A stretch of 64,000 nucleotides of DNA from an uncultured Clostridium sp. (GTDB lineage: Bacteria; Bacillota; Clostridia; TANB77; CAG-508): the NCBI GenBank assembly GCA_948468505.1, contig CAOKJE010000001.1:225-64224 (forward strand). Direction: 5' to 3'. The notes beneath the pieces were generated by a model. The model did not search any database. It was not told where the DNA came from and saw only the letters and a program-made list of their open reading frames with translations. How positions within the stretch are numbered: the first letter of the stretch is position 1; the number at the start of each line of letters is the position of its first letter. Position numbers and translations under genes: made by a program. Shown in pieces: positions 12,531 to 45,882 of this stretch.

Positions 12531-12567
12531 GGGATTGAGGGACGTTCCTTAAATCTTCAATCCCCAA
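12531..12567. repeat. GGGGACG-family motif, hairpin form, upstream of the ABC ATPase RBS
   Basis: ggggattga-gggacgttccttaaatct-tcaatcccc. The loop resembles the 35569 copy. Confidence 0.55.
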
Positions 12568-12581
12568 GGAAGGAGAAAAAG

Positions 12582-13487
12582 ATGGAAAAGACAGTTTTAA
12601 AATGTGAAAACCTAAACAAAAAATTTGGTAAAAAACAAATTTTAAAAGACGTTTCCTTTGAAATTGAGCAAGGAGATATCTTAGGATTTATTGGGCCAAA
12701 TGGTGCGGGAAAAACTACTACCATTAAATTAATATTAGGACTTCAAAGTATCACAAAAGGAAAGGTACAAATCAATGGATATGACATTGAAAAGCAATTT
12801 ACCAAAGCTATTAGTAATGTTGGTGCAATTGTCGAGAACCCAGATTTATACATGTATTTGTCAGGACTTGAAAACTTGAAATTAATTGCTAACTTATATA
12901 AAGGAATTGACCCAAAAAGAATAGACGAGGTTGTAAAACTGGTTAAGTTAGAAAATAGAATAAAAGACAAAGTTTCTAAATATTCTTTAGGAATGAGGCA
13001 AAGGCTAGGAATTGCTCAAGCTATTTTGCATAAGCCTAATTTACTAATTTTAGACGAACCAACCAATGGACTAGACCCAGAAGGAATAAAAGAAATGAGA
13101 GAACTTTTGATGGACTTAGCAAAAAAAGAAGAAATGGCAATCTTAATTTCAAGCCACAACCTAGCTGAATTAGACAACCTATGTAACAAAGTTTGTATCA
13201 TTAAAAATGGAGAGATTATTGAAACAAGTGACATAACAAGCATAAAAAAAGAAGCAGGAAAACAATTCCAAATATTAGAAGTAGATAACATTGAAAAACT
13301 AAAAGAACTACTACCCAAAGCAATTATCAGTAAAAACCAAGTTAAGATAGAAATACCAAAAGAACAAATACCAGAAATGATTGAAAAATTAGTAGAGAAC
13401 AACATCAAAATATATCAAGTAAAACAAGAAGAAAAATCTTTAGAACAAGCATTTTTCGAAAAGACAGGGGGAAATCACATTGAGTAA
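12582..13487 (+). CDS. ABC transporter ATP-binding protein
   Basis: Walker A GPNGAGKTT, signature LSLGMRQRL and Walker B LLILDE. Confidence 0.85.
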   Translation: MEKTVLKCENLNKKFGKKQILKDVSFEIEQGDILGFIGPNGAGKTTTIKLILGLQSITKGKVQINGYDIEKQFTKAISNVGAIVENPDLYMYLSGLENLKLIANLYKGIDPKRIDEVVKLVKLENRIKDKVSKYSLGMRQRLGIAQAILHKPNLLILDEPTNGLDPEGIKEMRELLMDLAKKEEMAILISSHNLAELDNLCNKVCIIKNGEIIETSDITSIKKEAGKQFQILEVDNIEKLKELLPKAIISKNQVKIEIPKEQIPEMIEKLVENNIKIYQVKQEEKSLEQAFFEKTGGNHIE

Positions 13488-14941
13488 ATTAATTAAAAAT
13501 GAATTAACCAAAATTTTCAAAAAAAAGAGCATTTATATAACTTTATTTGTCATTTTAGCTTTTGTTATTTTAACCAACTGCATTTATAAATTTTTCTATC
13601 ATAGTGGTATCTATAGCGAATACAATGATAGCTATATCCAATATGCCAAGGAAGAAATTGCAAAATTAGATCCCAATAAACCAAGTGATGTTAAAATGTA
13701 TATTGATTTAAAAACCACTTTAGACGTTTATGAAATAAGACAAAAATACGAATCAGGAACTTGGCAAGAAAAGATACTATCTATGCAAGTTTCAGGATAC
13801 ATCAATGAAAAAAACACCTATTTATATGGAGAAAACAAAGACAGCCAAAAAGTAGCAAAAATAGAAGAAGAAATCAAGCAAACTCTTCAAAAATTAGACC
13901 AAGGAGATTGGAAATTTTTTGCCCAAGAAGAATTAAAACAGGCAAAAACAGCCCTACAAAGATTAGAAGAGCAAAAACAAAATACCGTTGACAAGCAAGA
14001 ACTACAAGACTTAGAAATAGCAATAAAAAATGCTAAAATTGACCAAGAAGTAGCCGAAATTAGGATAAATAAAGACATTATATACGGAAATGACTTTAAA
14101 AACAACGCCTTAGAAACCTATCAAAGTGAAGCCAAAACTATAATCAGTGCAGAAGTTAATACACGGAGAACAAGAATATAAAACAAAACAAGAATACAAC
14201 AAAAGCTTAGAAAAAAGAGAAATAAATCACTACATTTTGGAAAATAACATAGACATCAACAAAACAAATGATGTAAGAGGAATTCTAAAAAATATATTTA
14301 GTGAATATGGCTTATTTATCATCGTCATGATAGTCATGATAGCAGGAACCATTGTAAGCGAAGAATTTAACAAAGGAACCATCAAACTATTATTAGTAAA
14401 ACCATATAGTAGAAACAAAATATTACTTGCCAAATTTATAACTGTTTTAATCATGATAGCATTTACTATTGTAGCAGTTATAGCAATGGAACTAATCGTA
14501 GGAGGAATCATTTTTGGATTTGACAGCTTATCAGTACCAGTTTTACAATATAATTTTACAACAGGAAACTTAGAAGTGCTAAACATCTTTACTTATTTAG
14601 GAATAGAAATACTAACGCAAGTACCGAAATTTATCCTATTAGCAACACTTGCCTTTTCTTGCAGTACCTTATTTACAAACAGTGCAGTAGCAATAGCAAT
14701 ACCACTGCTAGGTTATATGTCAGCTGATATGATTAACATGCTAGTCATTCAATACAAGGTACAATTCATGAAACTATTTGTCAGCTTAAATTGGAACTTC
14801 GAAGAATACCTATTTGGTAATTTGCCAAAGATGGAAGGAATGACTTGTAGTTTTTCTATTATAATATGTGTGCTATATTTTGTGGCTATGTTAATACCAA
14901 CTTTTATTACTTTTAAAAAGAAGAACATAAAGAACATTTAG
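13480..14941 (+). CDS. ABC-2 type transporter permease, one CGG recoding site (14164)
   Basis: Two overlapping ORFs join at aca-CGG-aga as ...EVNTGEQEYKTKQEY..., and the downstream half has six predicted transmembrane helices. Confidence 0.6.
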
Positions 14942-14946
14942 CTTGA

Positions 14947-15030
14947 AATGATTTTGGGGACGGAGGAAAAAATCATGATTGAATTGTTATACAACCATGA
15001 TTTTTTCCTCCGTCCCCAAAATCATTTCAA
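14947..15030. repeat. Perfect ~33-bp-arm palindromic element A (GGGGACGGAGG core, embedded RBS and ATG)
   Basis: gaaatgattttggggacggaggaaaaaatcatg ...19 nt... catgattttttcctccgtccccaaaatcatttc. The same arms occur at 18297-18380, and a half-copy at 40768-40798. Confidence 0.8.
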
Positions 15031-15098
15031 AATAAATATTGAATTTTGTAGAAAAAAGAGGTATAATAGTAGCATAGAAAATTAAAGGAGGAATCAAC

Positions 15099-15773
15099 AT
15101 GGAAGCAAAAATTATTGGAGAAACCTTACCAGCCGTTATTTGTAAACTACAAAAAGGAGAATCAATCCTTACAGAAAACGGTGGAATGAGTTGGATGGAC
15201 AATAAAATTACCATGAAAACAACCACAAATGGTGGAATTATGAAAGGAATCGGAAGAGCCTTTGCAGGAGAATCACTTTTTATGAATGTATACACAGCAG
15301 AGCAAGACAATGCAGAAATAGGATTTTCTTCTTGTTTTCCAGGACAAATATTAGAGTATGACTTAAAAGAAGGAGAAACCATCATTGCACAAAAACGTGC
15401 TTTTCTATGTTCAGAAAATACAGTAGACATCTCTATGCAATTTCGTAAAAAGCTAGGAGCAGGATTTTTTGGAGGAGAAGGATTCATCATGCAAAAAATC
15501 ACAGGACCAGGAAAAGTATTTTTAGAAATTGATGGTTCTGTTGTAAAAAAAGAATTACAAGCAGGAGAAAAATTAAAAGTAGACAATGGATATGTAGCAG
15601 CCATGACAAAAGATGTACAACTAAACATTGAAACCGTAAAAGGCGTAAAAAATATAGTATTTGGTGGAGAGGGATTATTCTTAACAACACTAGAAGGACC
15701 AGGTACCATATGGTTACAAACCATGCCAATTTCAAAATTATCAAGCTTATTATACGTAGGAACAGCAAGATAG
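15099..15773 (+). CDS. AIM24/TIGR00266-family protein
   Basis: Overall pattern of glycine-rich beta repeats (GAGFFGGEGFIMQKITGPG...GGEGLFLTTLEGPGTIWLQ). The antisense ORF 14987-15808 is spurious. Confidence 0.6.
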   Translation: MEAKIIGETLPAVICKLQKGESILTENGGMSWMDNKITMKTTTNGGIMKGIGRAFAGESLFMNVYTAEQDNAEIGFSSCFPGQILEYDLKEGETIIAQKRAFLCSENTVDISMQFRKKLGAGFFGGEGFIMQKITGPGKVFLEIDGSVVKKELQAGEKLKVDNGYVAAMTKDVQLNIETVKGVKNIVFGGEGLFLTTLEGPGTIWLQTMPISKLSSLLYVGTAR

Positions 15774-15774
15774 G

Positions 15775-15830
15775 AAATTTTGCCAAAAGGGACAGACCTT
15801 TTTGGCAATTTTGTTTCTTTTTTTTAAAAT
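15775..15830 (+). terminator. Rho-independent terminator
   Basis: ttgccaaaag ggacagacc tttttggcaa hairpin followed by a T-run. Confidence 0.6.
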
Positions 15831-15944
15831 TTAATAGAAAAAAGTTTGTAACAACTTTTGGGAAGTAGCGTAAAAATCTTTCCGACTTTTAGGTATATAA
15901 GTAGTAAGCAAGGTAATATAATATAAAAAAGGAGTTAAAGAAAA

Positions 15945-16569
15945 ATGAAAGTAATATTAGTTAATGGAAGTCCACATGAAAAAGGATGTACCTATACAGC
16001 CTTAAAAGAGGTAGAGAAGACCTTAAACCAAAATGAAATTGAAACTGAAATATTTTGGCTAGGAAATAAACCAGTAGCTCGGATGTATTGGTTGTGGAAA
16101 TTGTTTAAAAACAGGAGAATGTTTTGTAAAAGATAAAGTAAATGAATTTTTGGAAAAAGTGCCAAAAGCAGATGGCTTTATTTTTGGAACACCAGTACAT
16201 TTTGCAGCAAGCTCTGGTATGTTATCTTCTTTTATGGATAGAGCTTTTTATGGCAGAAGAAATTTATTTAGCAATAAGCCAGCTTCAGCAGTAGCAAGTT
16301 GTAGAAGAGGTGGGGCAACAGCCACTTTAGATGAAATTAACAAATATTTTGGTATTAGCAATATGCCAATCGTATCTTCTCAATATTGGAATATGGTGCA
16401 TGGAACCAAACCAGAAGAAGTAATAAAAGACGAAGAAGGAATGCAAACCATGAGAACGTTAGGAAACAATATGGCGTGGCTATTAAAATCAATAGAAGCA
16501 GGGAAAAAAGCAGGAATTGAATTACCTAAAAATGAACCAATTGTTTCTACTAATTTTATAAAACCATAA
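15945..16569 (+). CDS. Flavodoxin-like FMN-dependent reductase / iron-sulfur flavoprotein family, one CGG recoding site (16080)
   Basis: At gct-CGG-atg the +1 frame gives KPVAGCIGCGNCLKTGECFVKD (a Cys cluster) and continues into the 16150-16569 ORF. Confidence 0.6.
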
Positions 16570-16654
16570 TTTTTTGAATATGGTAGCAAAATCATTTTAA
16601 ATAACAAATAAATATTGCCAATTATTAAAAATAAAGATATAATAAGAAAAAAGA

Positions 16655-16697
16655 AAGCGATGTTTTTTGTGCTTTTAGGGACGAGGCCAAAAAACAT
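16655..16697. repeat. GGGACG-family hairpin element
   Basis: gcgatgttttttg-tgcttttagggacgaggc-caaaaaacatcgc lies upstream of the RBS for the 16721 gene. Confidence 0.5.
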
Positions 16698-16720
16698 CGC
16701 ATCAAAAAGGAGATATTATA

Positions 16721-17548
16721 ATGAAAAAAACAATCGCAAAAACAATCATGATAATTGCTATTTTAGCATTTACTTATGCAAATTTAGGACAAGTACAAGC
16801 AGTAACCAATCAAGAAATAACACAACAGCAACTAGAAAACTATGTAAAGGACATAGACCCAAACAACGTAAGCAAAGAAGATATTTTAAAGATATATGAC
16901 GAAGTAAGCAAAGACTATTCTCCAGAAAATATAGCTGATATGCTAGAAGAAAATGCAAAGGAAATAGAAGCACAAGGCGTTAGCAAAGATGTAATTTCAG
17001 CAGGGGCAGAGTTTATTAGACAAACCGATACACAAAGTATAAGAAAAATAATAGAAGATGACATTGACATAGAAGATATCAAAGAAAAGATACAAAAAGG
17101 TTATACAGCAGATCAAATTTTAAATAGTATGGTACAAGAAACACCAACCACAAAAAAAGTAGAAATAGCAACAAAAGTACTATTATCTAATAAAATAATA
17201 AAAACAATTGTGACAATAGCAGTAATAGTATTTATCTATGGAACCATTCTTAGATGGATTATTTATACCAAAGCTGGAAAACATGGATGGGCAGCAATTG
17301 TGCCACTTTACAGGCAAATTGTAATGTACCAAGTCTGTGGACTATCTCCATTTTTGATGCTACTTTGGTTAGTTCCTATATTTGGATGGATTGCGATGCT
17401 AGTAATTGCCATCATGAAAAGATTTTGCTTGGCTAAAGAATTTGGAAGAGGAGCTGGTTTTGGTTTTGGATTATTGTTTTTCGGACTAATTTTCCAAAGC
17501 ATATTAGCTTTTCATCCTAAGATTCAAAAAAATGAAAAGGAAGCGTGA
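16721..17548 (+). CDS. Secreted/membrane protein with a C-terminal multi-helix membrane domain
   Basis: Signal peptide, a charged ~150 aa region, then AGKHGWAAIVPLYRQIVMYQVCGL...FGRGAGFGFGLLFF transmembrane helices. Confidence 0.4.
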   Translation: MKKTIAKTIMIIAILAFTYANLGQVQAVTNQEITQQQLENYVKDIDPNNVSKEDILKIYDEVSKDYSPENIADMLEENAKEIEAQGVSKDVISAGAEFIRQTDTQSIRKIIEDDIDIEDIKEKIQKGYTADQILNSMVQETPTTKKVEIATKVLLSNKIIKTIVTIAVIVFIYGTILRWIIYTKAGKHGWAAIVPLYRQIVMYQVCGLSPFLMLLWLVPIFGWIAMLVIAIMKRFCLAKEFGRGAGFGFGLLFFGLIFQSILAFHPKIQKNEKEA

Positions 17549-17558
17549 AAAAAGAAAA

Positions 17559-18340
17559 ATGAACCAGAAGCGGAAAGATAGGAGTTTTTGATTCAGGGAT
17601 TGGTGGCGTAACTGTCTTACGGCGAAATGATTAAAATTTTACCAAAAGAAGATTACATCTATTATAGTGATTCTAAAAATAATCCATATGGCGATAAAAC
17701 AGAAGAAGAAATAAAACAGCTATGTGACAACATTGTCTTGCATTTACTAGAAAAAGAATGTAAAGCAATCGTAATAGCATGCAATACAGCAAGCGCAAAA
17801 GCAGCAGAATTCTTAAGAATAAAATATCCTAAAGTACCAATTATTGCAATCGAACCAGCCTATAAAATGGTGCATGATTATAATTATGATAAAAAAACCT
17901 TAGTAATGGCAACAAAAGGAACAATAGAAAGTGAAAAGTTTAATTTATTATTAAAAAAATATGATAATCATAAAACCTACCTTTTGCCTTGTGTGGGATT
18001 AGCCGAAAAAATCGAAGCAGGAAATCAAGAAGAAATTAAAAAATATTTGCAAAAAACACTAGGTTGTTATAAAAACAAAGTAGAAAATGTAGTGCTAGGC
18101 TGTACCCATTATCCCTTGATTCAAAATGAAATTGCAGATATTTTAGGGCAAGTTAAATTTTTTAATGGAGCTCCTAATTTAGCTAAGTATCTGAAAGAAG
18201 TTTTAGTGCAAAAGGATTTATTAAATGATGGAGAAGGAAGAATACATTTTGAAGATTCAGCAAGATTAGTAGAGAAGGAAAAAAGATTTTTTGAGATTTT
18301 AAAAGAGATTTTGGGGACGGAGGAAAAAATCATGGATTGA
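17559..18340 (+). CDS. murI: Glutamate racemase MurI, two CGG recoding sites (17571, 17620); C-terminus runs into element B
   Basis: Reading across aag-CGG-aaa and tta-CGG-cga gives MNQKGKIGVFDSGIGGVTVLGEMIKILPKEDYIYYSD. This joins the 17627-18340 ORF, which carries ACNTASA and GCTHYP, and the last 10 codons (LGTEEKIMD) come from the palindromic element. Confidence 0.75.
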
Positions 18341-18380
18341 ATAACAACGCAAGCCATGATTTTTTCCTCCGTCCCCAAAA
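18297..18380. repeat. Palindromic element B (same arms as element A)
   Basis: attttggggacggaggaaaaaatcatgg ...loop... ccatgattttttcctccgtccccaaaat. It overlaps the 3' end of murI. Confidence 0.8.
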
Positions 18381-18399
18381 TCTTTCCCAAATTTCAAAA

Positions 18400-18828
18400 T
18401 TATAAATATTTTTTCAACTGTTCCACTGTATTTTCCTGAAACTGAACAAACTCTGTTAGAATATTTTTCACAGGCTCATCGGTATTAGGGTTATGGTTTA
18501 AAAGCTTAACGCCCTTAATAATTCCCATATTAGTACCTTGTAGCATCATTTCAGCAATTTTAGAAGTACTTTTATCCTCCATAGTATTAAACTCTACACT
18601 CATCCACCCCATAGCTTTTTGCATGGGATTTAGCTCCTTGGGAAAGTCATTATAATGAGAAAGTTCAGTATTAACCTTATTTAAAATATCGTTATATTTG
18701 TCATATTGAAATTTTAAATCCTTTTTGAAATCGTCATCTTGTATCTTTTCAGCAACGTTAGAAATTGAATCCATCCCCATTTTAATTCCCTTATTAACTT
18801 CATTTAAAATATAACCAGGACTATCCAT
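18400..18828 (-). CDS. Hypothetical protein, possibly a spore coat protein F-like domain
   Basis: 142 aa ORF with an RBS (aaggagg) and no in-frame CGG. The family assignment is a weak impression only. Confidence 0.35.
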   Translation of the reverse strand: MDSPGYILNEVNKGIKMGMDSISNVAEKIQDDDFKKDLKFQYDKYNDILNKVNTELSHYNDFPKELNPMQKAMGWMSVEFNTMEDKSTSKIAEMMLQGTNMGIIKGVKLLNHNPNTDEPVKNILTEFVQFQENTVEQLKKYL

Positions 18829-18885
18829 TGTAAATTCCTCCTTTAATTTTTTTTAATATAACCAAAAGGAAAGAAAAATATTCTT

Positions 18886-18917
18886 TATGATGTTTTTTGG
18901 GACGGGGTCAAAAAACA
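18886..18917. repeat. GGGACGG-family hairpin element
   Basis: gatgttttttg-ggacggggt-caaaaaacatc lies between divergent genes. Confidence 0.5.
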
Positions 18918-18934
18918 TCATTTTATGAAAATAA

Positions 18935-18975
18935 GTGAACAATAGTATTGACTTTAAAAGGGAAAAAATGATAAA
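18935..18975 (+). promoter_or_regulatory. Sigma-A-type promoter for the pilin-like gene
   Basis: TTGACT, 17 nt spacer, then gATAAAAT. Confidence 0.45.
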
Positions 18976-19045
18976 ATCAATTATACAACACCAAAATGAC
19001 ATAATGTGAAAAGAAGAAATACGAAAGAAAGAGGAGCAAACAAAT

Positions 19046-31623: not shown

Positions 31624-32496
31624 ATGATATTAGAAGAAATAAAAGAAATGTTACCATTTGCTAATAAAATAAAAGTATATGCATTTGTTGGACCATCTGG
31701 AACAGGAAAAAGTTATCGAGCACAAATGGTAGCAGGAGAAAGAAATACCCATTTTATTATAGATGATGGATTGCTAATCAAAGACAATGAAGTAATAGCA
31801 GGAGAATCAGCCAAAAAAGCCTCAACCAAAGTGGCAACTGTTAAACATGCACTTTTTTATGAAGAAGAAGAAAAAGCAGAGATTGTAAAGGCTTTAAAAA
31901 AATATAAACCAGAAAGTATTTTAATTTTAGGAACATCAGATGGAATGGTACAAAAAATCGCAGCTAATCTAGGTTTGCCAGAAATTTTAGAAACCACCTA
32001 TATAACAGACGTTGCAACAGAGGCTGAAATGAAAACAGCAAGAAGAATAAGAGTAACTGAAGGAAAACATGTAATTCCAGTACCTACCTTTGAAATAAAA
32101 AAGGATTTTTCAGGTTATCTATTAGACCCTCTTCAAATCTTTAAATCAAAAGGAAAAGGAGAAAAGCCTTACATATCTGAAAAATCAATCATAAGACCAA
32201 CCTTTAGCTATATGGGACGATTCACCATTTCCGATTTAGTATTTAGGCAAATTGTAGAATACTTAGCCATACAAACACCAGCCATCTATAAAATTCTAAA
32301 AACGAGAGTAGAAAACTATGGAGATGGTGCTAAAATCTATATGGAAGTCACCATTATGTATGGTTATAATGTAATGGATGGTTTAAGAGACTTTAAACAA
32401 AAGGCTAAAAAAGAAATTGAAAAGCTAACAGCCATGAATGTAGAAGAATTAGATGTAGTTGCCAAAAACATCTATGTACCAGAAAACAGGGATTAG
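31624..32496 (+). CDS. P-loop NTPase domain fused to an Asp23/Gls24-family domain
   Basis: N-terminal Walker A GPSGTGKS. The C-terminal ~110 aa (TISDLVFRQIVEYLA...GAKIYMEVTIMYGYNVMD...) have the Asp23 (alkaline shock protein) pattern. Confidence 0.5.
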   Translation: MILEEIKEMLPFANKIKVYAFVGPSGTGKSYRAQMVAGERNTHFIIDDGLLIKDNEVIAGESAKKASTKVATVKHALFYEEEEKAEIVKALKKYKPESILILGTSDGMVQKIAANLGLPEILETTYITDVATEAEMKTARRIRVTEGKHVIPVPTFEIKKDFSGYLLDPLQIFKSKGKGEKPYISEKSIIRPTFSYMGRFTISDLVFRQIVEYLAIQTPAIYKILKTRVENYGDGAKIYMEVTIMYGYNVMDGLRDFKQKAKKEIEKLTAMNVEELDVVAKNIYVPENRD

Positions 32497-32510
32497 AGGG
32501 GACGCCCTTG
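32489..32510. repeat. GGGGACG-family motif
   Basis: gggattagaggggacgccc inside a 45 nt GC-rich island between the 31624 gene and cmk. Confidence 0.45.
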
Positions 32511-32569
32511 GCTGTGCGAACGTTGAGTGGGCTTACAGATAAGTAATACCTTAAATATAGGAGGCAAAG

Positions 32570-33979: not shown

Positions 33980-35473
33980 ATGAAAAAAGAAAGCAACAAA
34001 CCAAATGGTATCACGCTAATCACACTAGTAATCACAATCATTGTATTACTAATATTAGCAGGAGTATCATTAGCAACCTTAACAGGGCAAAACGGTATCT
34101 TAACAAAAGCAACAACAGCAAAGGAAGAAACAAAAAAAGCAGACTATATAGAAAACTTAGAAATCATAGGACTAAGTTTACAACGAAAAAAAGATATAAA
34201 TAATTGGAACAACCAAATCTATATGAATGAATACGAGCAAGAAATAAAACAAGACCAAATGTTTCAAAAAGCACAAAAAATAGAACAGCTAGAAGATATA
34301 GAAGAAATAAAAATTCAGGTAATAACGCAAGAAGGATGGATATTTTTAGTAACAGAAAATAATATAGTACAACTAGAAGAAATAGTGAAAACAGAACCAA
34401 CACAAATACATGTAGCATTAATTGGAGATACACTAAAATTTTTTGACACAGAAGAAGGAGCAACAACAGAAGTAGCAATTGCGAAAGAAAATGGAGTAAC
34501 AACAGCTAAATATTATGGAAATATACAAGAAGAAACATTTAGTAGAGCAGAAGATACTGGAAAAGTAAATACACCATGGAACGAAGAACTTACCATGATA
34601 AAAGCAGTAGAATTTGTAAATGAAATAAGACCAACCAATTCATCTTGTTATTTTGCAGATATGACAGAATTAACTCAAATAAGAAATATAGAAAACCTAA
34701 AAACTGCGAAAATAACAAGTATGGCTCGAATGTTTGAAGGATGTAGTAGCTTAGTAACATTAGATGTATCAAAATTTAATACAAAAAATGTAACAAGCAT
34801 GGCATACCTATTTAAGGAATGTAATAAAATAACAAATTTAAATTTAACCAATTTTAATACCAGCCAAGTAACAAATATGCAAGGCATGTTTAAAAATTGC
34901 GAAAACTTAACAAATTTGAACGTGTCAAAATTTAACACTGAAAATGTAATAAGTATGTTAGATATGTTTCAAGGCTGTAAGAATTTAGAGACATTAAATG
35001 TATCGAATTTTAACACCAAAAACGTAACAGATATGCAATACGTGTTTGATGGCTGTGAAAATTTGAAAACACTGGACTTATCAAATTTTGATACATCTAA
35101 TGTAAACTATATGGTGGCTACATTTAGAAATTGCAAAAGATTACAAAAATTGGATTTAAAAAATTTTGATACAAGCAATGTTACTACTTTAGGAAGTATG
35201 TTTCTAGGGTGTACCGAATTAAAAGAACTTTATTGTAATAATTTTACCATAAAAGATAATGCTTGGGTAGGGGACATGTTTAATAACTTAGGAAAATTAG
35301 AAAAGTTAAATATAAGTAAATTTAATTTAGAAAATCATACAGGAGAAAAAAATTTCATTTTCTATCTAATGCGAAAAGAAGTTGAAATAACAACTAACCA
35401 AAAAATGAAAACATGGTTAGAGAATTACTCTGAAAATGCATATAAATTTACTAACATAATAACAATCGATTAA
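33980..35473 (+). CDS. Pilin-like (class-III-signal-like) N-terminus fused to DUF285 / BspA-type LRR surface repeats
   Basis: N-terminus KPNGITLITLVITIIVLLILAGVSLATLTGQNGILTKA is near-identical to that of the 19046 gene. The C-terminal half has ≥8 FNT(K/S)NVT(S/D)M..MF(K/Q)(E/N)C repeats. Confidence 0.6.
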   Translation: MKKESNKPNGITLITLVITIIVLLILAGVSLATLTGQNGILTKATTAKEETKKADYIENLEIIGLSLQRKKDINNWNNQIYMNEYEQEIKQDQMFQKAQKIEQLEDIEEIKIQVITQEGWIFLVTENNIVQLEEIVKTEPTQIHVALIGDTLKFFDTEEGATTEVAIAKENGVTTAKYYGNIQEETFSRAEDTGKVNTPWNEELTMIKAVEFVNEIRPTNSSCYFADMTELTQIRNIENLKTAKITSMARMFEGCSSLVTLDVSKFNTKNVTSMAYLFKECNKITNLNLTNFNTSQVTNMQGMFKNCENLTNLNVSKFNTENVISMLDMFQGCKNLETLNVSNFNTKNVTDMQYVFDGCENLKTLDLSNFDTSNVNYMVATFRNCKRLQKLDLKNFDTSNVTTLGSMFLGCTELKELYCNNFTIKDNAWVGDMFNNLGKLEKLNISKFNLENHTGEKNFIFYLMRKEVEITTNQKMKTWLENYSENAYKFTNIITID

Positions 35474-35568
35474 AAAAATATCCTAGTGTATCATAACTAG
35501 GATATTTTAATCGTGTTTGACAAAAACAGAAAAAAGATGTATAATTTTATATGTTTTTAAGAGAAAAG

Positions 35569-35598
35569 GGATTTTGGGGACGTTCCTTAAAATCCCTA
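35569..35598. repeat. GGGGACG-family hairpin motif upstream of the typA RBS
   Basis: gggatttt-ggggacgttcctt-aaaatccc. Confidence 0.55.
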
Positions 35599-35614
35599 AA
35601 AAAGGAGTAAAAAA

Positions 35615-38161: not shown

Positions 38162-38473
38162 TTATTTTTCTGTATCTTCAGCATTTTCATCTTCAAAGAA
38201 GGAATCGTTTTCGATAGTTTCATCATTATCTTCATCTGGAATTTTATAAACTTCGTCTTCATCATCTAGCATACCATCAATGTCTTCTTCTGACAATTCT
38301 TCATCTTCTTCGGAATTATAATCATAGTCGTAATATTCGTAAGTACTATCATTATAAGTATTAATAATAGCTCTTACAATGAAAAATCCTGCCACTAAAA
38401 TGGCAACAACAATAAAACAAATAAGAAAGATTTTTAGACCAGATTTTTTATTATTTTCTTGTTTGGGTAGCAT
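38162..38473 (-). CDS. Membrane-anchored highly acidic protein
   Basis: N-terminal transmembrane helix LKIFLICFIVVAILVAGFFIV followed by a D/E-rich tail. Confidence 0.4.
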   Translation of the reverse strand: MLPKQENNKKSGLKIFLICFIVVAILVAGFFIVRAIINTYNDSTYEYYDYDYNSEEDEELSEEDIDGMLDDEDEVYKIPDEDNDETIENDSFFEDENAEDTEK

Positions 38474-38685
38474 GTTAAAAGCCTCCTTAAATTTTTTAAT
38501 AATATTATTCTTTTTTCATTATAGCATAAAAATAGGTTAAAAAAAGAAGTTTATAAAAAAGTAATAAAAAAACAATAGAAATGTAATAAAAATGAAACAA
38601 AAGAAAGAAGTTAAAGAGTAGATATAGACATTAAGTAAAAAACAAGATATAATAGGAATATAAAAATTAGTAGAAGGTAGTAGTT

Positions 38686-39162
38686 ATGTTAAAAAAGAAA
38701 GTTTTATTTATATCAAGTACAGGAGGACATTTAAGCGAACTATTGCAATTAGAACCTTTATTTAAAAAATATGATTATCATATCATAACAGAAAAAGATA
38801 AAGTAAATGAAAAGTTAAAAGAAAAATATGGTAACAAACTATATTTTCTACCTTATGGAACAAGAGCAAAACTATTCACATATATTTTCAAATATTTATA
38901 CCTTTGCCTAAAAACAATGTATTTATATTTTAAGTTACGCCCTAAAGTAATCGTAACAACAGGAACCCATACAGCAGGACCAATGTGTTACTTAGGCAAA
39001 ATATTGGGAAGCAAAATAATTTACATAGAAACCTTTGCCAACACCCATAAAAAAACAGCAACAGGAAGACTTATTTACCCAATTGCAGACTTATTTATTG
39101 TACAATGGGAGGAAATGCTTGAGTTATATCCCAAAGCAGTGTATGGAGGTTCGATTTATTAA
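38686..39162 (+). CDS. Alg14-like / PssD/Cps14F-type glycosyltransferase membrane-association subunit
   Basis: VLFISSTGGHLSELLQL N-terminus characteristic of split GT28-like pairs. Confidence 0.55.
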   Translation: MLKKKVLFISSTGGHLSELLQLEPLFKKYDYHIITEKDKVNEKLKEKYGNKLYFLPYGTRAKLFTYIFKYLYLCLKTMYLYFKLRPKVIVTTGTHTAGPMCYLGKILGSKIIYIETFANTHKKTATGRLIYPIADLFIVQWEEMLELYPKAVYGGSIY

Positions 39163-39638
39163 TGATTTTAGTATTATTAGGAACACAAAACAATAGTTTT
39201 TTCCGACTATTAGAAGAAATAGAAAAACTATTACAAAACAAAAAAATAAGCGAAGAAGTAACCGTACAAGCAGGTTACACAAAATTTCAATCCAACAACA
39301 TGAAAATATTAGACTTTATCTCAAAAGAAGAACTAGAAAACTTACTAGAAAAAGCAGATATAGTCATTACCCATGGAGGAGTGGGATCTATTTTGCAAGC
39401 CATAACGAAAAACAAAAAAGTAATAGCTATACCAAGACACCATAAATATGAAGAACATGTCAATGACCATCAAAAAGAAATTGTAGAGCTTTTTCATAAA
39501 AAAGGCTATATAATAGGACTGCAAGAAGTAGAAGAATTAGAACAAGCCATCAAGCAAATAGAAGAATTTAAACCACAAAAATACAAACCAGACAATCACA
39601 AAATGTTAAAAATAATTGAAGACTTCATCGAAAAATGA
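39162..39638 (+). CDS. Alg13-like / PssE/Cps14G-type glycosyltransferase catalytic subunit
   Basis: Its stop overlaps the partner gene's start. ADIVITHGGVGSIL matches the Glyco_tran_28_C pattern. Confidence 0.55.
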   Translation: MILVLLGTQNNSFFRLLEEIEKLLQNKKISEEVTVQAGYTKFQSNNMKILDFISKEELENLLEKADIVITHGGVGSILQAITKNKKVIAIPRHHKYEEHVNDHQKEIVELFHKKGYIIGLQEVEELEQAIKQIEEFKPQKYKPDNHKMLKIIEDFIEK

Positions 39639-39705
39639 CCCATTGGTTCCGGGAATAAATGGGGACATGGCCCACTGGTTCCGGGTTTAAATGGGGACAT
39701 GAAGG
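39639..39705. repeat. Tandem direct repeat (2 x ~33 nt) carrying GGGGACA motifs, upstream of ruvB
   Basis: cccattggttccgggaataaatggggacatgg / cccactggttccgggtttaaatggggacatga. Confidence 0.7.
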
Positions 39706-39741
39706 AAGATAATAGAAAAAGCAAAGGAGGACTTAAAATAA

Positions 39742-40759
39742 ATGGAAGAAGAAAGAATCATGAAGGCAGACTTAGAAAATGCAAGCGAAGAACGATTTGA
39801 AAACACATTAAGGCCAAAAACGCTACAAGAATACATAGGGCAAAACAAAGTTAAAGAAAACATGAAAATATATATAGAAGCTGCCAAAAAAAGAGAAGAA
39901 CCATTAGACCATGTTTTATTATATGGTCCTCCAGGCTTGGGAAAAACCACATTGTCCAATATTATATCAAACGAAATGAATTCCAACATCAAAATAACCT
40001 CAGGACCAGCGATTGAAAAACCAGGAGACTTAGCATCTTTACTAACTAACTTAGCAGAATTTGATGTGTTATTTATTGACGAAATTCATAGATTAAGTAA
40101 AAGTGTAGAAGAAATACTATATCCAGCATTAGAGGACTACACCCTGGATATTATTATTGGAAAAGGACCAAGTGCAAGATCCATACGACTAGATTTACCA
40201 AAATTTACATTAATAGGGGCTACCACAAAAGCAGGAGCGTTATCAACACCATTAAGAGATCGATTTGGGATTGTACATCGATTAGAACTTTATAGTATCG
40301 AAGACTTAACCACAATTGTTAAAAGGTCAAGCAAAATTTTAGAAGTAGAAATTGAAGAAGTAGCAGCCATCGAAATAGCAAGAAGATCAAGAGGAACGCC
40401 AAGAATTGCCAACCGACTATTAAAAAGAGTAAGAGACTATGCCATTGTATTAGGAGATGGAACCATTTCGCTAAAAATCACAAAGCATGCTTTAAACCAA
40501 CTAGAAATTGATGAACTTCGGCTTAGACGAAATTGACCGAAAAATACTAGAAACCATGATTGTTCAATATAGAGGAAGACCAGTTGGAATTGAAGCTTTA
40601 GCAGTAAGTGTAGGAGAAGAAATTGACACCATAGAAGATGTGTATGAGCCATACTTAATACAAATTGGCTTTATGGCAAGAACCTTACGAGGAAGACAAG
40701 CCTTACCACCTGCCTATAAGCATTTAGGATATGAATGTGAAATGGGAGACGGTTCTTAA
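39742..40759 (+). CDS. ruvB: Holliday junction helicase RuvB, one CGG recoding site (40519)
   Basis: Walker [10 protein letters not shown] and Walker B FIDEIHRL. At ctt-CGG-ctt the +1 frame gives [20 protein letters not shown]... and continues to 40759. Confidence 0.85.
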
Positions 40760-40767
40760 TTCACATA

Positions 40768-40798
40768 GCGGATTTTGGGGACGGAGGAAAAAATCATG
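40768..40798. repeat. Half-copy of the palindromic element, supplying the RBS and ATG of the next gene
   Basis: gattttggggacggaggaaaaaatcATG matches the left arm of elements A and B, and the ATG is the start of the 40796 gene. Confidence 0.7.
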
Positions 40799-41338
40799 AA
40801 GTTATTATTACATACTTGTTGTGCACCATGTAGCATATATTGTATTGACAGCCTAAGACAAGAAGGTATTGAACCAACTATATATTGGTTTAATCCTAAC
40901 ATACACCCATACATGGAGTATAAACAAAGAAGAGACTGCTTAAAAGAATATACAAAAATGATAGAGGTAGAAGCCATTTTTGAAGAAAATTATGGCTTAC
41001 AAGAGTTTTGTAAAAAGACAATAGAAGATTTAAATAATCGTTGTCAAAATTATTGTTATCCTGTTCGCTTAGAGCAAACTGCCAAATATGCGAAAGAAAA
41101 TGGCTATGATAGTTTCACAACAACATTGCTAGTTAGTCCCTATCAAAACCATGAAATGTTGATTAAAGTAGGAAAAGAAATGGCGAAAAAATATGGAATA
41201 GAATTTTTGTATCGTGACTTTAGAGTAGGATTTCGAGAAGGGCAAACAAAAGCAAGAGAACTAGGACTTTATATGCAAAAGTACTGTGGCTGTGTTTTTT
41301 CAGAAGAGGATAGGTATTTACATGCCAAAAGAAAATAG
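40796..41338 (+). CDS. queH: Epoxyqueuosine reductase QueH (DUF208)
   Basis: Conserved Cys pattern (MKLLLHTCCAPCS ... CQNYC ... YCGC) and size. Confidence 0.6.
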   Translation: MKLLLHTCCAPCSIYCIDSLRQEGIEPTIYWFNPNIHPYMEYKQRRDCLKEYTKMIEVEAIFEENYGLQEFCKKTIEDLNNRCQNYCYPVRLEQTAKYAKENGYDSFTTTLLVSPYQNHEMLIKVGKEMAKKYGIEFLYRDFRVGFREGQTKARELGLYMQKYCGCVFSEEDRYLHAKRK

Positions 41339-41440
41339 ATTACAGTTTCAATCTGTCTTGAACATAAGAATAAATAACCACAATAAAAATAAATGGTCAA
41401 GTTGTACCTGTTCCACCTTAGCCATAGAAGGAGATAAAAA

Positions 41441-43135
41441 TTGATAAAAAAAGAAAAACACAAAAGTCTAGCAATTGTATTAGCCATCAATATAGTCTTA
41501 TTTTTCTTAGTAAACTGTATACTAAACCTAAAATATGAACAAGTTGATGACTTCATTATATATAATATGTACTCAGGGTTAGATGGAGCCTATAACATGC
41601 ATGGAATTTATATTCATCCAATTATCTGCATGATATTAAGCTTCCTTTTTAGGATAATACCAGTTATCAACTGGCATACCATTTTTTTACTCATAATGCA
41701 ATTGATATGCTTTACCACAATAGGATATAAAATACTAAAGAAAAATGAAAATAATATTTCTAGTATATTGCTATACACGTTATTTGCAGGAACTTTTTAT
41801 ACAGCGCTATTATTACTAATACAATACACCTCAGTTTCAGCATTACTAATCGGAACAGCACTTTTTATAACAATTGATAGCCAAGAAACGGATAACCGAA
41901 ACAAAAAGAATTTAGTATTAAGTAGCATTTTGTTTGCCATTGGCATTATGACAAGAATGCAATCACTATTAATAATAGTACCATTTTTTGCCATCTATGC
42001 TATCTATTATCTAGCAAAATATAAACGAAAAATGATACCAAAACAAACCCTTATTGCCATTGCAAAATACTACTTAACATTTATCCTAATAACAATAATT
42101 GTGTATATATCTAATATCATAATATATAATGCAAATGAAATCGATAAAAACTATAAAGAATATAATAAAATCAGATCATACTTACATGACTTAAGCTATG
42201 TAAACTATGAAGAAAACAAAGAATTATTCCAAGAAATAGGCTGGTCTGAAAACGACCATTACCTATTTTACACCTTTAATTTTGGAGATGAAAAAGTTTA
42301 TAGCAAAGAAAACTTACAAAAAATCTATGATTATCAAAAACAAAAACAAAAAAAGCAACCAGATTTAGGAGAAAAAGCAAATTCACTAATAAATGAAATG
42401 CTCCAGACAAACACCTATATAAGCATACTAATCATTGCAATTTTCATGATAGCAATATACAACAAGAAAAAAGTATCCATTAATATTCTAATATTTTACA
42501 CAAGCTTAGCAATCCATATGCTTTTTATCTTTTTAAACCGAAGCATGCTAAGAGTAGTAATACCAGAATATATAATAGGAACAGCCTTGCTAATTTACAA
42601 TTTAGATTGGCATCAAAAGCAAACCACCAAAAGCCATATAAAAAATGCAATAACAATTACCGTTATATTAACAATCATAATTAATTTACAGAGCCAAAAA
42701 TACAATTTTGATTATAAAATAGAAGACTACCAAAACTATAAACAATTAATAAACTATACAAATAGCCATAAAGAAAACGTATATCTTTATACTGTGCCAT
42801 CTTTGCAATATCGATACTTAACCTATTCAGTATACGAAATGCCACCTGAAAAAGCCTTTTCAAATCTACGAGTAATGGGGGGCTGGGACATGTTAAATCA
42901 AAACTATTATAAATTTAAAAACAGATACCAATTAGAGGGAACCTTCTTAGATTTACTAAAGGAAAATGTTTATCTAATTGATGGCGATGTAACTTGGTCA
43001 GGAAAAAGATATGAAAAATATATCAACCATATTGTAAGGTTCCTAAAAGAAAATTACAACATAGACGTAACTTATGAAAAACTAGAAGAATTCGATAATC
43101 TTTATATTTATAAATTATCAGAAAAAGAAGGATAA
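41441..43135 (+). CDS. Large polytopic membrane protein (TTG start)
   Basis: ≥10 predicted transmembrane helices in the first 420 aa, then a soluble C-terminal domain, and no in-frame CGG. Confidence 0.4.
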   Translation: MIKKEKHKSLAIVLAINIVLFFLVNCILNLKYEQVDDFIIYNMYSGLDGAYNMHGIYIHPIICMILSFLFRIIPVINWHTIFLLIMQLICFTTIGYKILKKNENNISSILLYTLFAGTFYTALLLLIQYTSVSALLIGTALFITIDSQETDNRNKKNLVLSSILFAIGIMTRMQSLLIIVPFFAIYAIYYLAKYKRKMIPKQTLIAIAKYYLTFILITIIVYISNIIIYNANEIDKNYKEYNKIRSYLHDLSYVNYEENKELFQEIGWSENDHYLFYTFNFGDEKVYSKENLQKIYDYQKQKQKKQPDLGEKANSLINEMLQTNTYISILIIAIFMIAIYNKKKVSINILIFYTSLAIHMLFIFLNRSMLRVVIPEYIIGTALLIYNLDWHQKQTTKSHIKNAITITVILTIIINLQSQKYNFDYKIEDYQNYKQLINYTNSHKENVYLYTVPSLQYRYLTYSVYEMPPEKAFSNLRVMGGWDMLNQNYYKFKNRYQLEGTFLDLLKENVYLIDGDVTWSGKRYEKYINHIVRFLKENYNIDVTYEKLEEFDNLYIYKLSEKEG

Positions 43136-43159
43136 AACCAAAAATAGGAGGAAAAAACT

Positions 43160-45853
43160 TTGGAAAAAATAGTATTAGTAGATGGGAACAGCATCATGAA
43201 TCGAGCCTTTTATGGAATAATGGGAAGCAAAATCTTAACCACAAAAGATGGGAAATACACCAATGCCATTTACGGCTTTTTAGCCATTCTATTTAAACTA
43301 TTAGAAGATGTAAACCCAAAATATCTAGTCGTTGCCTTTGACCTAAAAGCACCAACAGCAAGACACAAGCTATACGAAGGTTACAAAGCAACCAGAAAAG
43401 GAATGCCACAAGAACTAGCAGACCAGATGCCAATCATAAAAGAAATCTTGCGTGCCATGAACATAGACATCGTGGAAATGGAAGGGTATGAAGCAGACGA
43501 TGTGCTTCGGTACCTTATCTTGTTATGGAGAAAAACAAGGACTAGAAGTAACCATCCTTTCTGGAGATAGAGACACCTTTCAGTTAGCAACCGACAAAGT
43601 AACCATTCGCATTCCCCACACCAAAGGAGGAAAAACAGAAACAGACGAATACAATCGTGCAGCCATCATCGAAAAATATGGCTTAGAGCCAAAGCAATTA
43701 ATTGATGTAAAAGGCTTACAAGGAGATAGTAGTGACAACATCCCTGGAGTTCCTGGAATAGGTGAAAAAACAGCGCTTTCACTCATTCAAAAATTTGGCT
43801 CCATCGAAAACTTATATGAAAAAGTAGAAAAGCAAGAAGCAGAGTTAAAAGGAAAACAAAAAGAAAACATCGAAAACAACAAAGACCTAGCCTTTTTATC
43901 TAAAACCTTAGGAACCATCAACCTAGAAGTTCCAATAAAACACACATTAGAAAATTTCAAAGTAGAAGAGTGGGACAAACCAAAAGTATTAGAACTATTT
44001 AAAGAACTAAACTTTAATCGTTACATTGAACGTTTTTCTTTACGAGGGGAAGAAGTTGCCAAAAAAGAACCAAAAGATTTATTTAAGATAGTAGATAAAA
44101 CCAAAGAAGAAATCATAAACTTAATAAACAAGCAAAAGCAAATGACATTTTATCTTCACACCAAAGAAGAACAGCTACCTGAAAAAATCATAAAAGAAAA
44201 AATAACAGGTTTTTCAATTTTTAATGCAGAAACAAAAGAAGCTAGCTATATTGCTATCACAGAAGAACAAATAGCAAAAGACCTAAAAGAAGTTTTAGAA
44301 AAGGAAGAAATAAAAAAAATAGGCATTAACCTAAGCAAAGTATACATCCTATTAAAACAAATAGGCGTTGATTTAAAAGGAATAAACTATGACATTGCAA
44401 TTAGCAGTTACATTTTAAACCCAAGCCATAACAAATTAGAAATCGGAAACCTAATCGAGCAATATTTAGAAATAGACCTAGAAAGGTGGATACGGAGAAG
44501 AAACAAAGCAAGAGCAAATGAATTTATTTGATATGCCAACAGAAAAAGAAAATCAAGAAAAATATGCCTTATATGCCTATGCCATCAGCCAGATAAAAGA
44601 AATTACCCAAAAACAATTAGAGGAAATAGGAGCCTTAGAACTATTTTACGAAATCGACATGCCAACAATTGAGGTATTATCTAACATGCAGTGGAATGGC
44701 ATGTATGTTGACGAAGAAGAGCTAAGTGAATTTGGAAAAGAATTGACAGATAAACTAGAGACGATCACAAAAATAATCTATGAAATGGCAGGAGAAGAAT
44801 TTAACATTAACTCAACTAAGCAATTAGGAGAAATTCTATTTGAAAAAATGAAACTACCAGTTATCAAAAAAACCAAAAGTGGTTATTCAACCGATGTAGA
44901 TGTCTTAGAAAAACTAAAAAGGGAAGACCCAATCATTGAACAAATCTTAGAATATCGCCAACTAATGAAGTTAAATTCTACCTATGTAGAAGGCTTAAAA
45001 CAATACATTAACCCAAAAACCAAAAGAATACACTCCTTTTTCCATCAAACCATAACAGCAACAGGAAGAATTAGCTCAACAGAACCAAATTTGCAAAACA
45101 TACCAACCAGATTTGAATTAGGAAAAAGAGTAAGAAAAGTATTTAAACCAGAAGAAGGAAAAATTTATGTAGATGCCGATTACTCTCAAATTGAGTTAAG
45201 AGTATTAGCCCACATTTCAGATGATGAGCACATGATACGGAGCCTTCTTGGAAGGGCAAGACATCCATAAACAAGCAGCATCGAAAGTATTCAAAACGCC
45301 AATTGACCAAGTAACCAAAGAGCAAAGAAGTGACGCCAAAGCCGTAAACTTTGGAATTGTCTATGGAATCAGTGACTTTGGGTTAGCAGAGCAGCTAGGA
45401 ATTTTAAGAAAAAAAGCCAAAGAATACATTACCGAATACCTAGAGCAATATGCAGGCATCAAAACCTTTATGGAGGAAATTACCAAAAAAGCAACAGAAG
45501 ATGGTTATGTAGAAACCCTATTTCATAGAAGAAGATACATTCCAGAGCTAAAATCAAGTAACTACATGGTAAGACAATTTGGCTCAAGAGCTGCCATGAA
45601 CACCCCCATCCAAGGAACGGCAGCAGACATCATGAAAATAGCCATGATAAAAGTACACCAAGAGCTTCAAAAAAGAGGACTACAAGCAAAAATTGTATTA
45701 CAAGTGCATGACGAAATGATGATAGAAGCACCAGAAAACGAAAAAGAACAGATAAAGGACATATTAAAACAAAGCATGGAAAGTGCAATCGACCTAAAAG
45801 TACCATTAATAGCGGACATAGGAGAAGCAAAAAATTGGTATGATTGCAAATGA
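43160..45853 (+). CDS. polA: DNA polymerase I, three CGG recoding sites (43508, 44493, 45238), TTG start
   Basis: Four overlapping ORFs join into the 5'-nuclease, 3'-5'-exonuclease-like and polymerase domains. The junctions restore EADDVLGTLSCYGEK (E. coli EADDVIGTLA), LERWIGEETKQEQMNLFD, and HMIGAFLEGQDIHKQAA. Confidence 0.9.
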
Positions 45854-45862
45854 TATCCTAGT

Positions 45863-45882
45863 AAGAAACGTCCCCAATCGAC
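45863..45882. repeat. GGGGACG-family motif (reverse orientation) just upstream of the RBS
   Basis: aaacgtccccaatcgaccc resembles the 31548 copy. Confidence 0.5.

Follow-up and report, generated by a model that had tools for sequence, protein, structure and literature searches.

A family of GGGGAC-box hairpin repeats in uncultured Clostridia, probably of the REP/REPIN type and linked to a Y1 transposase gene

In a stretch of 64,000 nucleotides from an uncultured Clostridium sp. (contig CAOKJE010000001.1, positions 225 to 64,224), hereafter called the window, short hairpins with the sequence GGGGACG recur between the genes, which raises the question of what kind of element they are. According to our analysis they are probably REP/REPIN-like repeats of the TIRtron/TIRYT type, that is, dispersed copies of the terminal inverted repeats of a RAYT/TIRYT-type Y1 (HUH) transposase gene. 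This is a known kind of small non-coding mobile DNA, in a host group for which such elements had not been described previously.

The GGGGACG family that a preliminary description of this DNA had recognized is real. The heptamer has nine exact matches in the window, compared with 0.49 expected; none of 100 dinucleotide shuffles reached nine, and GGGGACG is the most over-represented 7-mer of this DNA, which has a G+C content of 0.26-0.36 and a strong purine excess on the forward strand. Five of the nine matches belong to one exact 28-mer, GATTTTGGGGACGGAGGAAAAAATCATG, which forms two perfect inverted doublets and a single copy at 40771-40798. An element is present at every site that had been listed, and yet the motif has to be redrawn. 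The sites at 16655, 18886 and 12531 carry GGGACG instead of GGGGACG. The one at 23211 reads GATTTTAAGGCGGAGATAAAATC, without any GGGGAC, and is most plausibly a decayed copy. The leading GGG-(A/T)ATT, which had been regarded as a block of the motif, belongs to a variable stem and is not conserved. The conserved block is GGGGAC(G/A) within a loop of about 9-18 nt. Site reading together with folding revealed about 15-17 hairpin units with this box between 12.5 and 46 kb, nearly all of them intergenic and with folds that are stable relative to shuffles. Typed by their loop sequence (A, A2, B, C and D), the units form four or five sub-families, at least four of which coexist in the 64 kb at a density of about one element per 4 kb. 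What had been described as a single element family is therefore a set of several related ones.

The anatomy of the units is clearest for type A, whose hairpin has an outer stem that varies and measures 4-6 bp, an inner stem that is always TTTT/AAAA, and the 13-nt loop GGGGACGGAGGAA, which contains GGAGG. A scan for the 21-nt core TTTTGGGGACGGAGGAAAAAA over one genome per species returned more than 117 stretches. Among the matches listed, all but one come from uncultured Clostridia, whose assemblies derive from sheep, rabbit, chicken, mouse and human gut samples. The outer stem is nearly uniform within one genome, whereas between genomes it shows paired changes (catga/tcatg, gatga/tcatc, cctgt/acagg, cttgt/acaag, agaaa/tttct, ggttac/gtaacc and ggttcc/ggaacc), and more than ten stem classes exist overall. 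For the covariation test we used 93 distinct sequences from a search in which only the 21-nt core was fixed and the outer stem was free to vary. The four outer pairs adjoining the core are paired in approximately 86-88% of the sequences, with double changes in 9 to 34 sequences per pair, and the covariation score of 0.324 stands against 0.136 in shuffles (none of 500 as high) and at most 0.14 when the partners are slid. These compensatory changes show that the hairpin is under selection. Type B behaves in the same manner, with a constant loop GGGGACGTT(C/T)CTT and varying stems (tgaacttt/aaagttca, agggatt/aatccct and gcaatt/aattgc). When type A copies from other genomes were used to build a covariance model, a run of this model on the window recovered the five perfect type A copies with E <2e-7, the units at 35567 and 18887 with E of about 4e-4 and the decayed copy at 23211 with E=0.075.

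The arrangement of neighboring units is strictly ordered. Among adjacent type A cores at most 200 nt apart in the fetched loci, 46 pairs are in forward-reverse order, none is in reverse-forward order and four point in the same direction; if any GGGGACG is counted, forward-reverse and reverse-forward pairs stand at 49 to 1. The doublets are 49-146 bp long (median about 100) and have A/T-rich spacers. Their topology of forward unit, spacer and reverse unit is the same as that of forward unit, transposase gene and reverse unit minus the gene. Doublets of approximately 100 bp with inverted ends of 28-35 bp might also be read as ordinary miniature inverted-repeat transposable elements of a DDE-type insertion sequence. 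However, 34 of 48 doublets have no target-site duplication, 12 have one matching base and only two have longer matches, so that 46 of 48 show 0-1 nt. In addition, each end is itself a hairpin, and a search that was not exhaustive detected no DDE transposase beside the repeats, the adjacent gene instead encoding a Y1/HUH enzyme. The simpler idea that the units are intrinsic terminators finds one suitable case in the hairpin at 15780, which is followed by a T-rich tail and passes a terminator scan. Most copies, though, lack a T tract and combine an A/T-rich stem with a loop of about 13 nt, and the number of terminator-like structures in the region (4, compared with 4.8 expected from shuffles) is unremarkable, with 15780-15808 the only copy that qualifies. 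We therefore consider it extremely improbable that the units are elements of the DDE type or simply terminators.

The Y1/HUH enzyme was identified by searching the six-frame open reading frames of the window and of the fetched loci with sequences of IS608, IS200 and an E. coli RAYT. These sequences served as bait only; the conclusions rest on the reading frames found, which were checked with Pfam, NCBIfam, PDB and a fold search. Two reading frames with a Y1_Tnp domain adjoin the motif, one in locus L009 (1726-2235, Pfam Y1_Tnp E=1e-14) and a partial one in L049, which ends about 10 nt from it. The L049 fragment, used as a query, led to 106 proteins, mostly of 246-250 amino acids and with PF01797. 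An alignment of 29 of these family members shows no variation in the HUH motif (NNHAHLL) or in the tyrosine motif (YIHxNPV). The best NCBIfam family is NF047646, REP_Tyr_transpos (REP-associated tyrosine transposase), with E of about 1e-20, compared with 28 bits for the IS200 model. The best solved structure by sequence profile is 4ER8, E. coli TnpA_REP (E=3e-4). The same structure is the best fold match (E=2.4e-6, TM 0.70 on the target) of an AlphaFold model with a mean pLDDT of 85.7, followed by the IS608 and ISDra2 transposases. Residues 183-245 of the model form a confident, extra all-helical C-terminal domain, and residues 205-245 give only sub-threshold helix-turn-helix matches (HTH_24, HTH_26, HTH_23 and HTH_28).

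The evidence that connects this enzyme with the repeats comes from the flanks of its gene. We read the contigs of eight members of the protein family, which belong to uncultured low-GC gut Clostridia. All eight lineages have a reverse unit directly at the stop codon or close to it (at 0-20 nt, except for about 90 nt in L131), and a forward unit lies 45-650 nt upstream of the gene in seven of the eight; in the remaining one, L133, the upstream flank is too short. The repeat variants are specific for the lineage and agree on both sides of the gene. The gene for P0035 (L118) has perfect type A units on both sides, and that for P0001 (L121) has a perfect type A unit downstream and a decayed one upstream. 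Both sides carry TGATTTTGGGGTCGGAGACAAAAATCA at P0063 (L124), TTGGGGACGGGGCAAAAAA at P0096 (L126), GACTTTGGGGACGGGGTCAAAAGTC at P0087 (L128), which is the A2 loop of the window, TTTGTCTGTTAAGGGGACGCGCACC at P0100 (L130) and the type C-like TGGGACAGTCCTAATTTGTCTC at P0105 (L131), and at P0090 (L133) the reverse copy GCCCGTCCCCA is the only one. Repeats of the form GGGACAG(A/T)CC flank the transposase genes in L131 and L135. Type B repeats flank such genes in L151, L148 and L147, and type C repeats in L135; therefore, each type present in the window matches the flanking repeat of some lineage of the enzyme. P0035, P0001 and P0063 are 57-65% identical and share the gene order ABC-F, (deaminase), transposase, Tex, which argues for vertical inheritance, whereas in other lineages the transposase gene lies in other genomic contexts. 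Many of the transposase contigs, for instance L120 and L132, reach a length of only about 0.9-1.4 kb and terminate in the flanking repeats, so that these repeats appear to fragment short-read metagenome assemblies.

The association extends to more distant relatives. A metagenome scan with the protein alignment yielded 80 loci with relatives at 26-53% identity, 60 of them with usable flanks. In 51 of the 60, an exact inverted repeat of at least 9 nt spans the gene, and in 39 of those it contains a GGG[AT][CG] box, most commonly GGGGACGGTTCT or GGGGACAG. As controls for box-bearing repeats in the same 60 relatives, a comparison of the upstream flank with the gene interior gave 0 and direct repeats gave 7. 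Since Y1 transposase genes are systematically flanked by the repeats, the enzyme is a specific candidate partner, and this speaks against the idea that the units are double-stranded DNA sites for a host regulator or nucleoid protein without any relation to a transposase. A GGGGACG box that is conserved over many genomes while its flanks vary, in sites that are intergenic and near promoters, would suit such a protein. Neither a compensating stem around the site nor a strict forward-reverse order would be needed by it, though, and copies also lie in coding regions and after stop codons. Taken together, we regard this explanation as very unlikely.

Single type A units between co-directional flanks present a different aspect, because their GGGGACG lies on the purine-rich (coding) strand in 32 cases and on the other strand in 11 (p of about 0.002 by normal approximation). 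This strand bias could reflect lagging-strand targeting or selection on transcripts. The second possibility leads to the view that the elements act primarily in cis as RNA: as stem-loops of leaders or trailers they would offer a G-rich, Shine-Dalgarno-like loop to a protein or the ribosome and in this way govern the stability or the translation of the mRNAs of a certain gene set. The coding-strand excess of single units fits this view, as do the GGAGG in the type A loop, the covarying stems and the G-T positions of types B and C, which lengthen the stem in the forward strand only; moreover, a promoter-like site precedes and a ribosome-binding site follows the units at 16657, 35567 and 12530. 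In contrast, the units occur in both orientations, after stop codons, in forward-reverse doublets and even inside the coding sequence of uvrC (L064 and L089). Their neighbors are unrelated housekeeping genes, and close relatives differ at orthologous sites. The repeats flank Y1 transposase genes in the eight lineages and in 39 of the 60 relatives, and no Rfam family is matched beyond sub-threshold generic long-hairpin models. In the window, only tRNAs reach the Rfam gathering score, and at E up to 1 just non-specific microRNA-precursor models hit the long palindromes. An RNA-level function as the primary explanation is thus unlikely. CsrA-type binding sites with a GGA loop were considered as well and are not supported, given both orientations, the doublets and the transposase gene alongside. 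Integron attC, CRISPR and dif-like sites were dropped, since the elements are dispersed among housekeeping genes, form no arrays and lack the defining boxes. A literature search for the core sequence gave unrelated eukaryotic primer matches only.

The differences between close relatives are best illustrated by several loci that are approximately 80-89% identical to parts of the window and carry different elements or none at orthologous intergenic sites. Upstream of dnaK, the window has a decayed A unit and a reverse A2 unit, L109 one perfect A unit, L050 a doublet and L041 a reverse unit by the ribosome-binding site. The type B hairpin upstream of typA is represented in L008 by its 3' half only, beside other sequence. 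The B-like doublet after rlmN corresponds to a reverse A unit in L057, the type C unit at 15780 is missing in L047, and where the window has the 16657 unit, L047 has an A doublet with a 54-nt insert interrupting its forward unit. The preliminary description had favored a role at the DNA level, with a REP-like element as one option, over a single RNA structure. This judgement is borne out by the turnover at orthologous sites, by the boxes flanking RAYT-like Y1 genes, by the ordered doublets and by the lack of target-site duplication.

Nevertheless, several observations weigh against the elements being REP/REPIN-like repeats of a Y1 transposase. The homology search of the window's open reading frames found no transposase homologue in the 64 kb, and the link between repeat and enzyme therefore rests on related genomes. 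The enzyme scores 70-80 bits with NF047646, just under the curated cut-off of 80. The spacers of the doublets are poorly conserved, even inside one genome, and the 93 sequences behind the covariation score include related copies from the same genomes and are not independent. Two hallmarks of classical REPs are absent, as there is no 5' GTAG, and the stems are A/T-rich with large loops. The excess of single units on the coding strand (32 to 11) could stem from selection at the RNA level and not from the transposition mechanism. Finally, both the transposition of the units and the activity of the enzyme are predicted.

If the units are nevertheless repeats of this transposase, as we think, their mobilization in trans by the Y1 enzyme on single-stranded DNA might be assumed because of what is known of IS200/IS605 and TnpA_REP biology (PMC6006769, PMC3733652). 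The transposase would recognize the hairpin and the box on single-stranded DNA, cut and rejoin it and leave the target unduplicated, and units and doublets would thereby spread in trans. Since the units land in transcribed intergenic DNA, they also shape transcripts, as hairpins of leaders or trailers, and some of them contribute a start codon together with its ribosome-binding site, a new C-terminus of a protein or additional in-frame codons.

Such effects on genes can be read from the reading frames, and any function for the cell is presumed from sequence. In the window, the single type A unit at 40771..40798 on the forward strand (the exact 28-mer, covariance-model E=1.8e-7) contributes its own GGAGG and ATG as ribosome-binding site and start codon of queH (40796-41338), and the product read from this ATG matches the QueH Pfam family with E=6.7e-61. 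Type A units likewise supply the starts of obg in L036 and of an accD-like gene in L056. The left arm of the doublet at 18306 codes for the last residues (…EILGTEEKIMD*) of an Asp/Glu racemase-family gene (17627-18340). In uvrC, a type A unit lies in frame (…QHDFGDGGKNHD…; …KVKKELQHDFGDGGKNHDLDKK…), with its core at about 5183-5203 in L064 and about 4645-4665 in L089, both on the minus strand, and a gene of L067 contains one more in-frame copy, which is translated in this same frame (FGDGGKNH).

The remaining copies in the window can be arranged by type. Of the three large palindromes whose arms had been proposed to consist of the motif, 14943-15030 and 18306-18383 are indeed long perfect palindromes, each arm being a hairpin ATGATTTT-GGGGACGGAGGAA-AAAATCAT, whereas the one at 40768 is a single arm only. 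The type A inverted doublet at 14943..15030 is REPIN-like, with a forward unit at 14948-14976 and a reverse unit at 14997-15025, arms that are exact copies of GATTTTGGGGACGGAGGAAAAAATCATG and a covariance-model E of about 8e-10 per arm. As single-stranded DNA it folds with -41.6 kcal/mol (z=-14), and it lies between the stop codon of an ABC-2 permease gene (14941) and a promoter-like site at 15039-15067. The second type A inverted doublet, at 18306..18383, lies between convergent genes (covariance-model E of about 4e-8; -37.8 kcal/mol, z=-13). Together with the unit at 40771 these account for the five perfect type A copies; the decayed one, at 23211..23243 on the forward strand, is upstream of dnaK.

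Three hairpins belong to type A2, with loops of the GGGACGGGGTC kind, degenerate versions of GGGACGxGG, on stems GATGTTTTTTG/CAAAAAACATC of 10-13 bp. The one at 16657..16700 (forward strand, 13-bp stem, loop with AGGGACGAGG, z=-5.9) lies just 3' of a promoter-like site at 16615-16643 and 5' of the ribosome-binding site of gene 16721. The unit ATGATGTTTTTTG-GGACGGGGT-CAAAAAACATCAT at 18887..18921 (forward strand, E=4.6e-4, z=-8.1) occupies a divergent intergenic region, and its loop matches the inverted repeats around the P0087 transposase gene. The third, at 23273..23300 on the reverse strand (covariance-model E=0.52), is directly 5' of the ribosome-binding site of dnaK.

Type B, with the loop GGGGACGTTCCTT, comprises two hairpins whose loop is GGG(G)ACGTTCCTT, and three further sites at which the box is present. 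The hairpin at 12530..12565 (forward strand, loop GGGACGTTCCTT…) lies upstream of the ribosome-binding site of the ABC ATPase gene 12582, and that at 35567..35597 (forward strand, AGGGATTTT-GGGGACGTTCCTT-AAAATCCCT, covariance-model E=4e-4, z=-4.4) lies in the typA leader. An inverted doublet of type B-like units (AATTGGGGGAC…GTCCCCAATT) at 31510..31564 overlaps the end of rlmN (30485-31552), and a decayed type B unit is found at 45863..45884 on the reverse strand between polA and the SLT gene. At 32489..32560 (forward strand) the GGGGAC box contains the stop codon of gene 31624-32496 and is followed by an insert of about 55 nt (32504-32558) and then by AGGAGG, the ribosome-binding site of cmk. 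This insert (GCCCTTGGCTGTGCGAACGTTGAGTGGGCTTACAGATAAGTAATACCTT…) has one other copy in the loci compared, namely the related 54-nt sequence that splits the type A unit of L047 after GGGA (3985-4038), and it looks like a second small element that enters the loop.

Type C is represented by one hairpin, TTGCCAAAA-GGGACAGACCT-TTTTGGCAA, at 15780..15808 (forward strand, z=-5.2), right after the stop codon of an AIM24-family gene; its T-rich tail gives it the terminator-like appearance mentioned above, and it had not been listed before. The tandem repeat at 39639 that the preliminary description had included proved to be two 32-nt units with ATGGGGACAT at the 3' end. These two tandem forward type D units (CCCAYTGGTTCCGGGWWTAAATGGGGACATGR, 39639..39702, forward strand) lie between a glycosyltransferase gene and ruvB. 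This unit recurs in other genomes, namely in forward-reverse doublets in L036 and L067 and as a single copy in L100. A possible relic, CCAAATTTT-GGGTCTGGATAGA-AAAATTTGG, lies inside a HAD-hydrolase gene at 6763..6793 on the forward strand; its loop resembles the GGGGTCGGAGAC variant of L124, but the assignment is uncertain (covariance-model E=0.07). Reading of the sites also confirmed that units stand next to ribosome-binding sites (ABC ATPase 12582, the 16721 gene, typA 35615 and SLT 45902) and after stop codons, and that they occur in both orientations.

Two loci outside the window deserve separate mention. In L009 (1636-2235), from a Spirochaetales genome bin of higher G+C content, an exact 21-nt type A core lies 70 nt upstream of a 169-aa Y1_Tnp gene. 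The core is within a locally A/T-rich stretch and no reverse copy follows the gene, which suggests either that a TIRtron was transferred horizontally or that the contig is chimeric or contaminated. In L019, a 77-aa fragment of a classical IS200-type transposase (7199-7429, minus strand; E=5e-21 to the IS200 bait sequence) is found about 250 nt from a type A core, and this may be coincidence or an insertion near the repeat.

Some further features of the window were noticed. Two intergenic perfect hairpins at 58419-58467 and 47773-47810, which are unrelated to the GGGGAC family, are almost purely A/T and have stems of 21 bp and 16 bp, respectively. The ruvB gene (39742-40759) falls into two overlapping frames, the first with RuvB_N and the lid and the second with RuvB_C, polA (43488-45853) is divided among at least three, and there are further runs of overlapping open reading frames at 8480-10723. 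Behind the split ruvB and polA genes are either assembly errors, indels of the sort that long reads typically produce in A/T runs, or genuine frameshifts or pseudogenes. Upstream of hrcA (21082-22089), which is followed by grpE and dnaK, the inverted repeat TTAGCACT-N11-AGTGCTAA at 20992-21018 overlaps a promoter-like site (21005-21033); it resembles a CIRCE heat-shock operator. At 3913-4785, six 69-nt (23-aa) repeats, which are similar to leucine-rich repeats of the BspA type, are followed by two 79-nt repeats encoding a DGDGxxTxxD motif that we assume to be dockerin-like. The genes 19046-20635 and 33980-35473 (DUF285 plus leucine-rich repeats) have a stretch of 135 nt in common with 76% identity.

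What do these repeats mean for their hosts and for those who study them? Studies of REP/REPIN-RAYT systems have dealt almost exclusively with Proteobacteria, and the TIRYT class is rarely mentioned in the literature searched and has no known activity. The conserved box across many species, combined with genome-specific stems, offers a ready mutational series for binding and cleavage tests. On the practical side, the repeats break metagenome assemblies and create or alter the starts and ends of genes (queH, obg, the accD-like gene, the racemase-family gene and uvrC); pipelines that annotate gut Clostridia ought to allow for them. A more speculative idea, which we put forward tentatively, is that several REPIN-like populations with one common GGGGAC(G/A) box coexist, each with its own helix-turn-helix Y1 paralogue, and that the units have perhaps been co-opted as portable expression modules (Shine-Dalgarno sequence plus start codon, leader or trailer hairpins and in-frame peptides). 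If this were true, it would be the first well-populated REPIN-type system in Firmicutes and a natural experiment on the recognition and action of the poorly understood TIRYT/subclass 2.1 enzymes.

It remains to compare the elements with the systems known so far. From the classical REP, BOX and RUP families they are distinct, as had been stated before, since they lack a GTAG tag and match no Rfam family. The REP/REPIN-RAYT systems used for comparison are those of Proteobacteria (Nunvar 2010; Bertels and Rainey 2011, PMC3116915; E. coli TnpA_REP, PDB 4ER8). As in these systems, short hairpin repeats are plentiful in extragenic space, inverted doublets fold into long hairpins, a cognate HUH/Y1 gene is flanked by the repeats (here in related genomes) within a conserved gene order, the repeat variants are genome-specific and target duplication is absent. 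However, the GTAG tetranucleotide (5' GT(A/G)G at the foot of the hairpin) is missing, the stems are A/T-rich instead of G/C-rich, the loop is large, and it is this loop rather than the whole repeat that is conserved across many species. The protein is also about 80 amino acids longer and has an extra C-terminal helical domain. According to Bertels et al. 2017 (PMC5581495), Group 1 RAYTs occur in Clostridia too, and abundant REPs are tied only to Groups 2 and 3.

There is some resemblance to the CGTC-tagged REPs, including the Rickettsia palindromic elements (PMC3733652), because the reverse strand of the box, CGTCCCC, contains CGTC, and because in-frame insertions in protein-coding genes, including a DNA-repair gene, are found in both. 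The CGTC-tagged REPs have an unpaired CGTC end by a stem of 8-9 bp, a loop of 4-5 nt and a CCA tail, and no transposase is associated with them (PMC3733652). In our elements, in contrast, CGTC lies inside the loop of about 9-18 nt, a CCA tail is missing, and the repeats go together with a transposase gene.

The closest precedent, which restricts the earlier view that the elements stand apart from known families, are the repeats with a GGGGWSAS box of the TIRtrons. The names TIRtrons/TIRYT were introduced by Di Nocera et al. 2013 for RAYT-like genes between inverted repeats that share GGGGWSAS, and some of these repeat families are moderately abundant and some self-complementary; their paper nowhere uses the terms Firmicutes, Clostridi- or Gram-positive (PMC3733652). 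Bac_DnaA_C, HTH_23 or HTH_28 are the C-terminal domains characteristic of the TIRYT enzymes. Quentin et al. 2018 classified TIRYT as TnpA_Y1 subclass 2.1, with a C-terminal helix-turn-helix domain, and did not find REP-like sequences beside subclass 2.1 genes (PMC6006769). In this last respect our loci differ, since clear hairpin repeats flank the genes of the enzymes, which are candidate members of this subclass. Further differences from the TIRtrons are that the hosts are uncultured low-GC Clostridia and that the box is mostly GGGGACGG, with G instead of A at position 7. GGGGACGG and GGGGTCGG agree with GGGGWSAS at seven of eight positions, and GGGGACAG, which is found in several lineages, agrees at all eight. 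Owing to the missing GTAG tag and this one-position difference in the box, we do not file the elements under classical REPs but as REP/REPIN-like repeats of the TIRtron type, whose hairpin is unusually distinct, the loop being conserved and the stem free to vary. They have in common with the TIRtrons a RAYT-like Y1 gene flanked by inverted repeats with a shared box that agrees with GGGG[AT][CG]A[CG] at seven or all eight positions, some repeats that are self-complementary, the dispersal as singles, dimers and clusters, and a C-terminal protein extension of helix-turn-helix-like character (here by sub-threshold matches).

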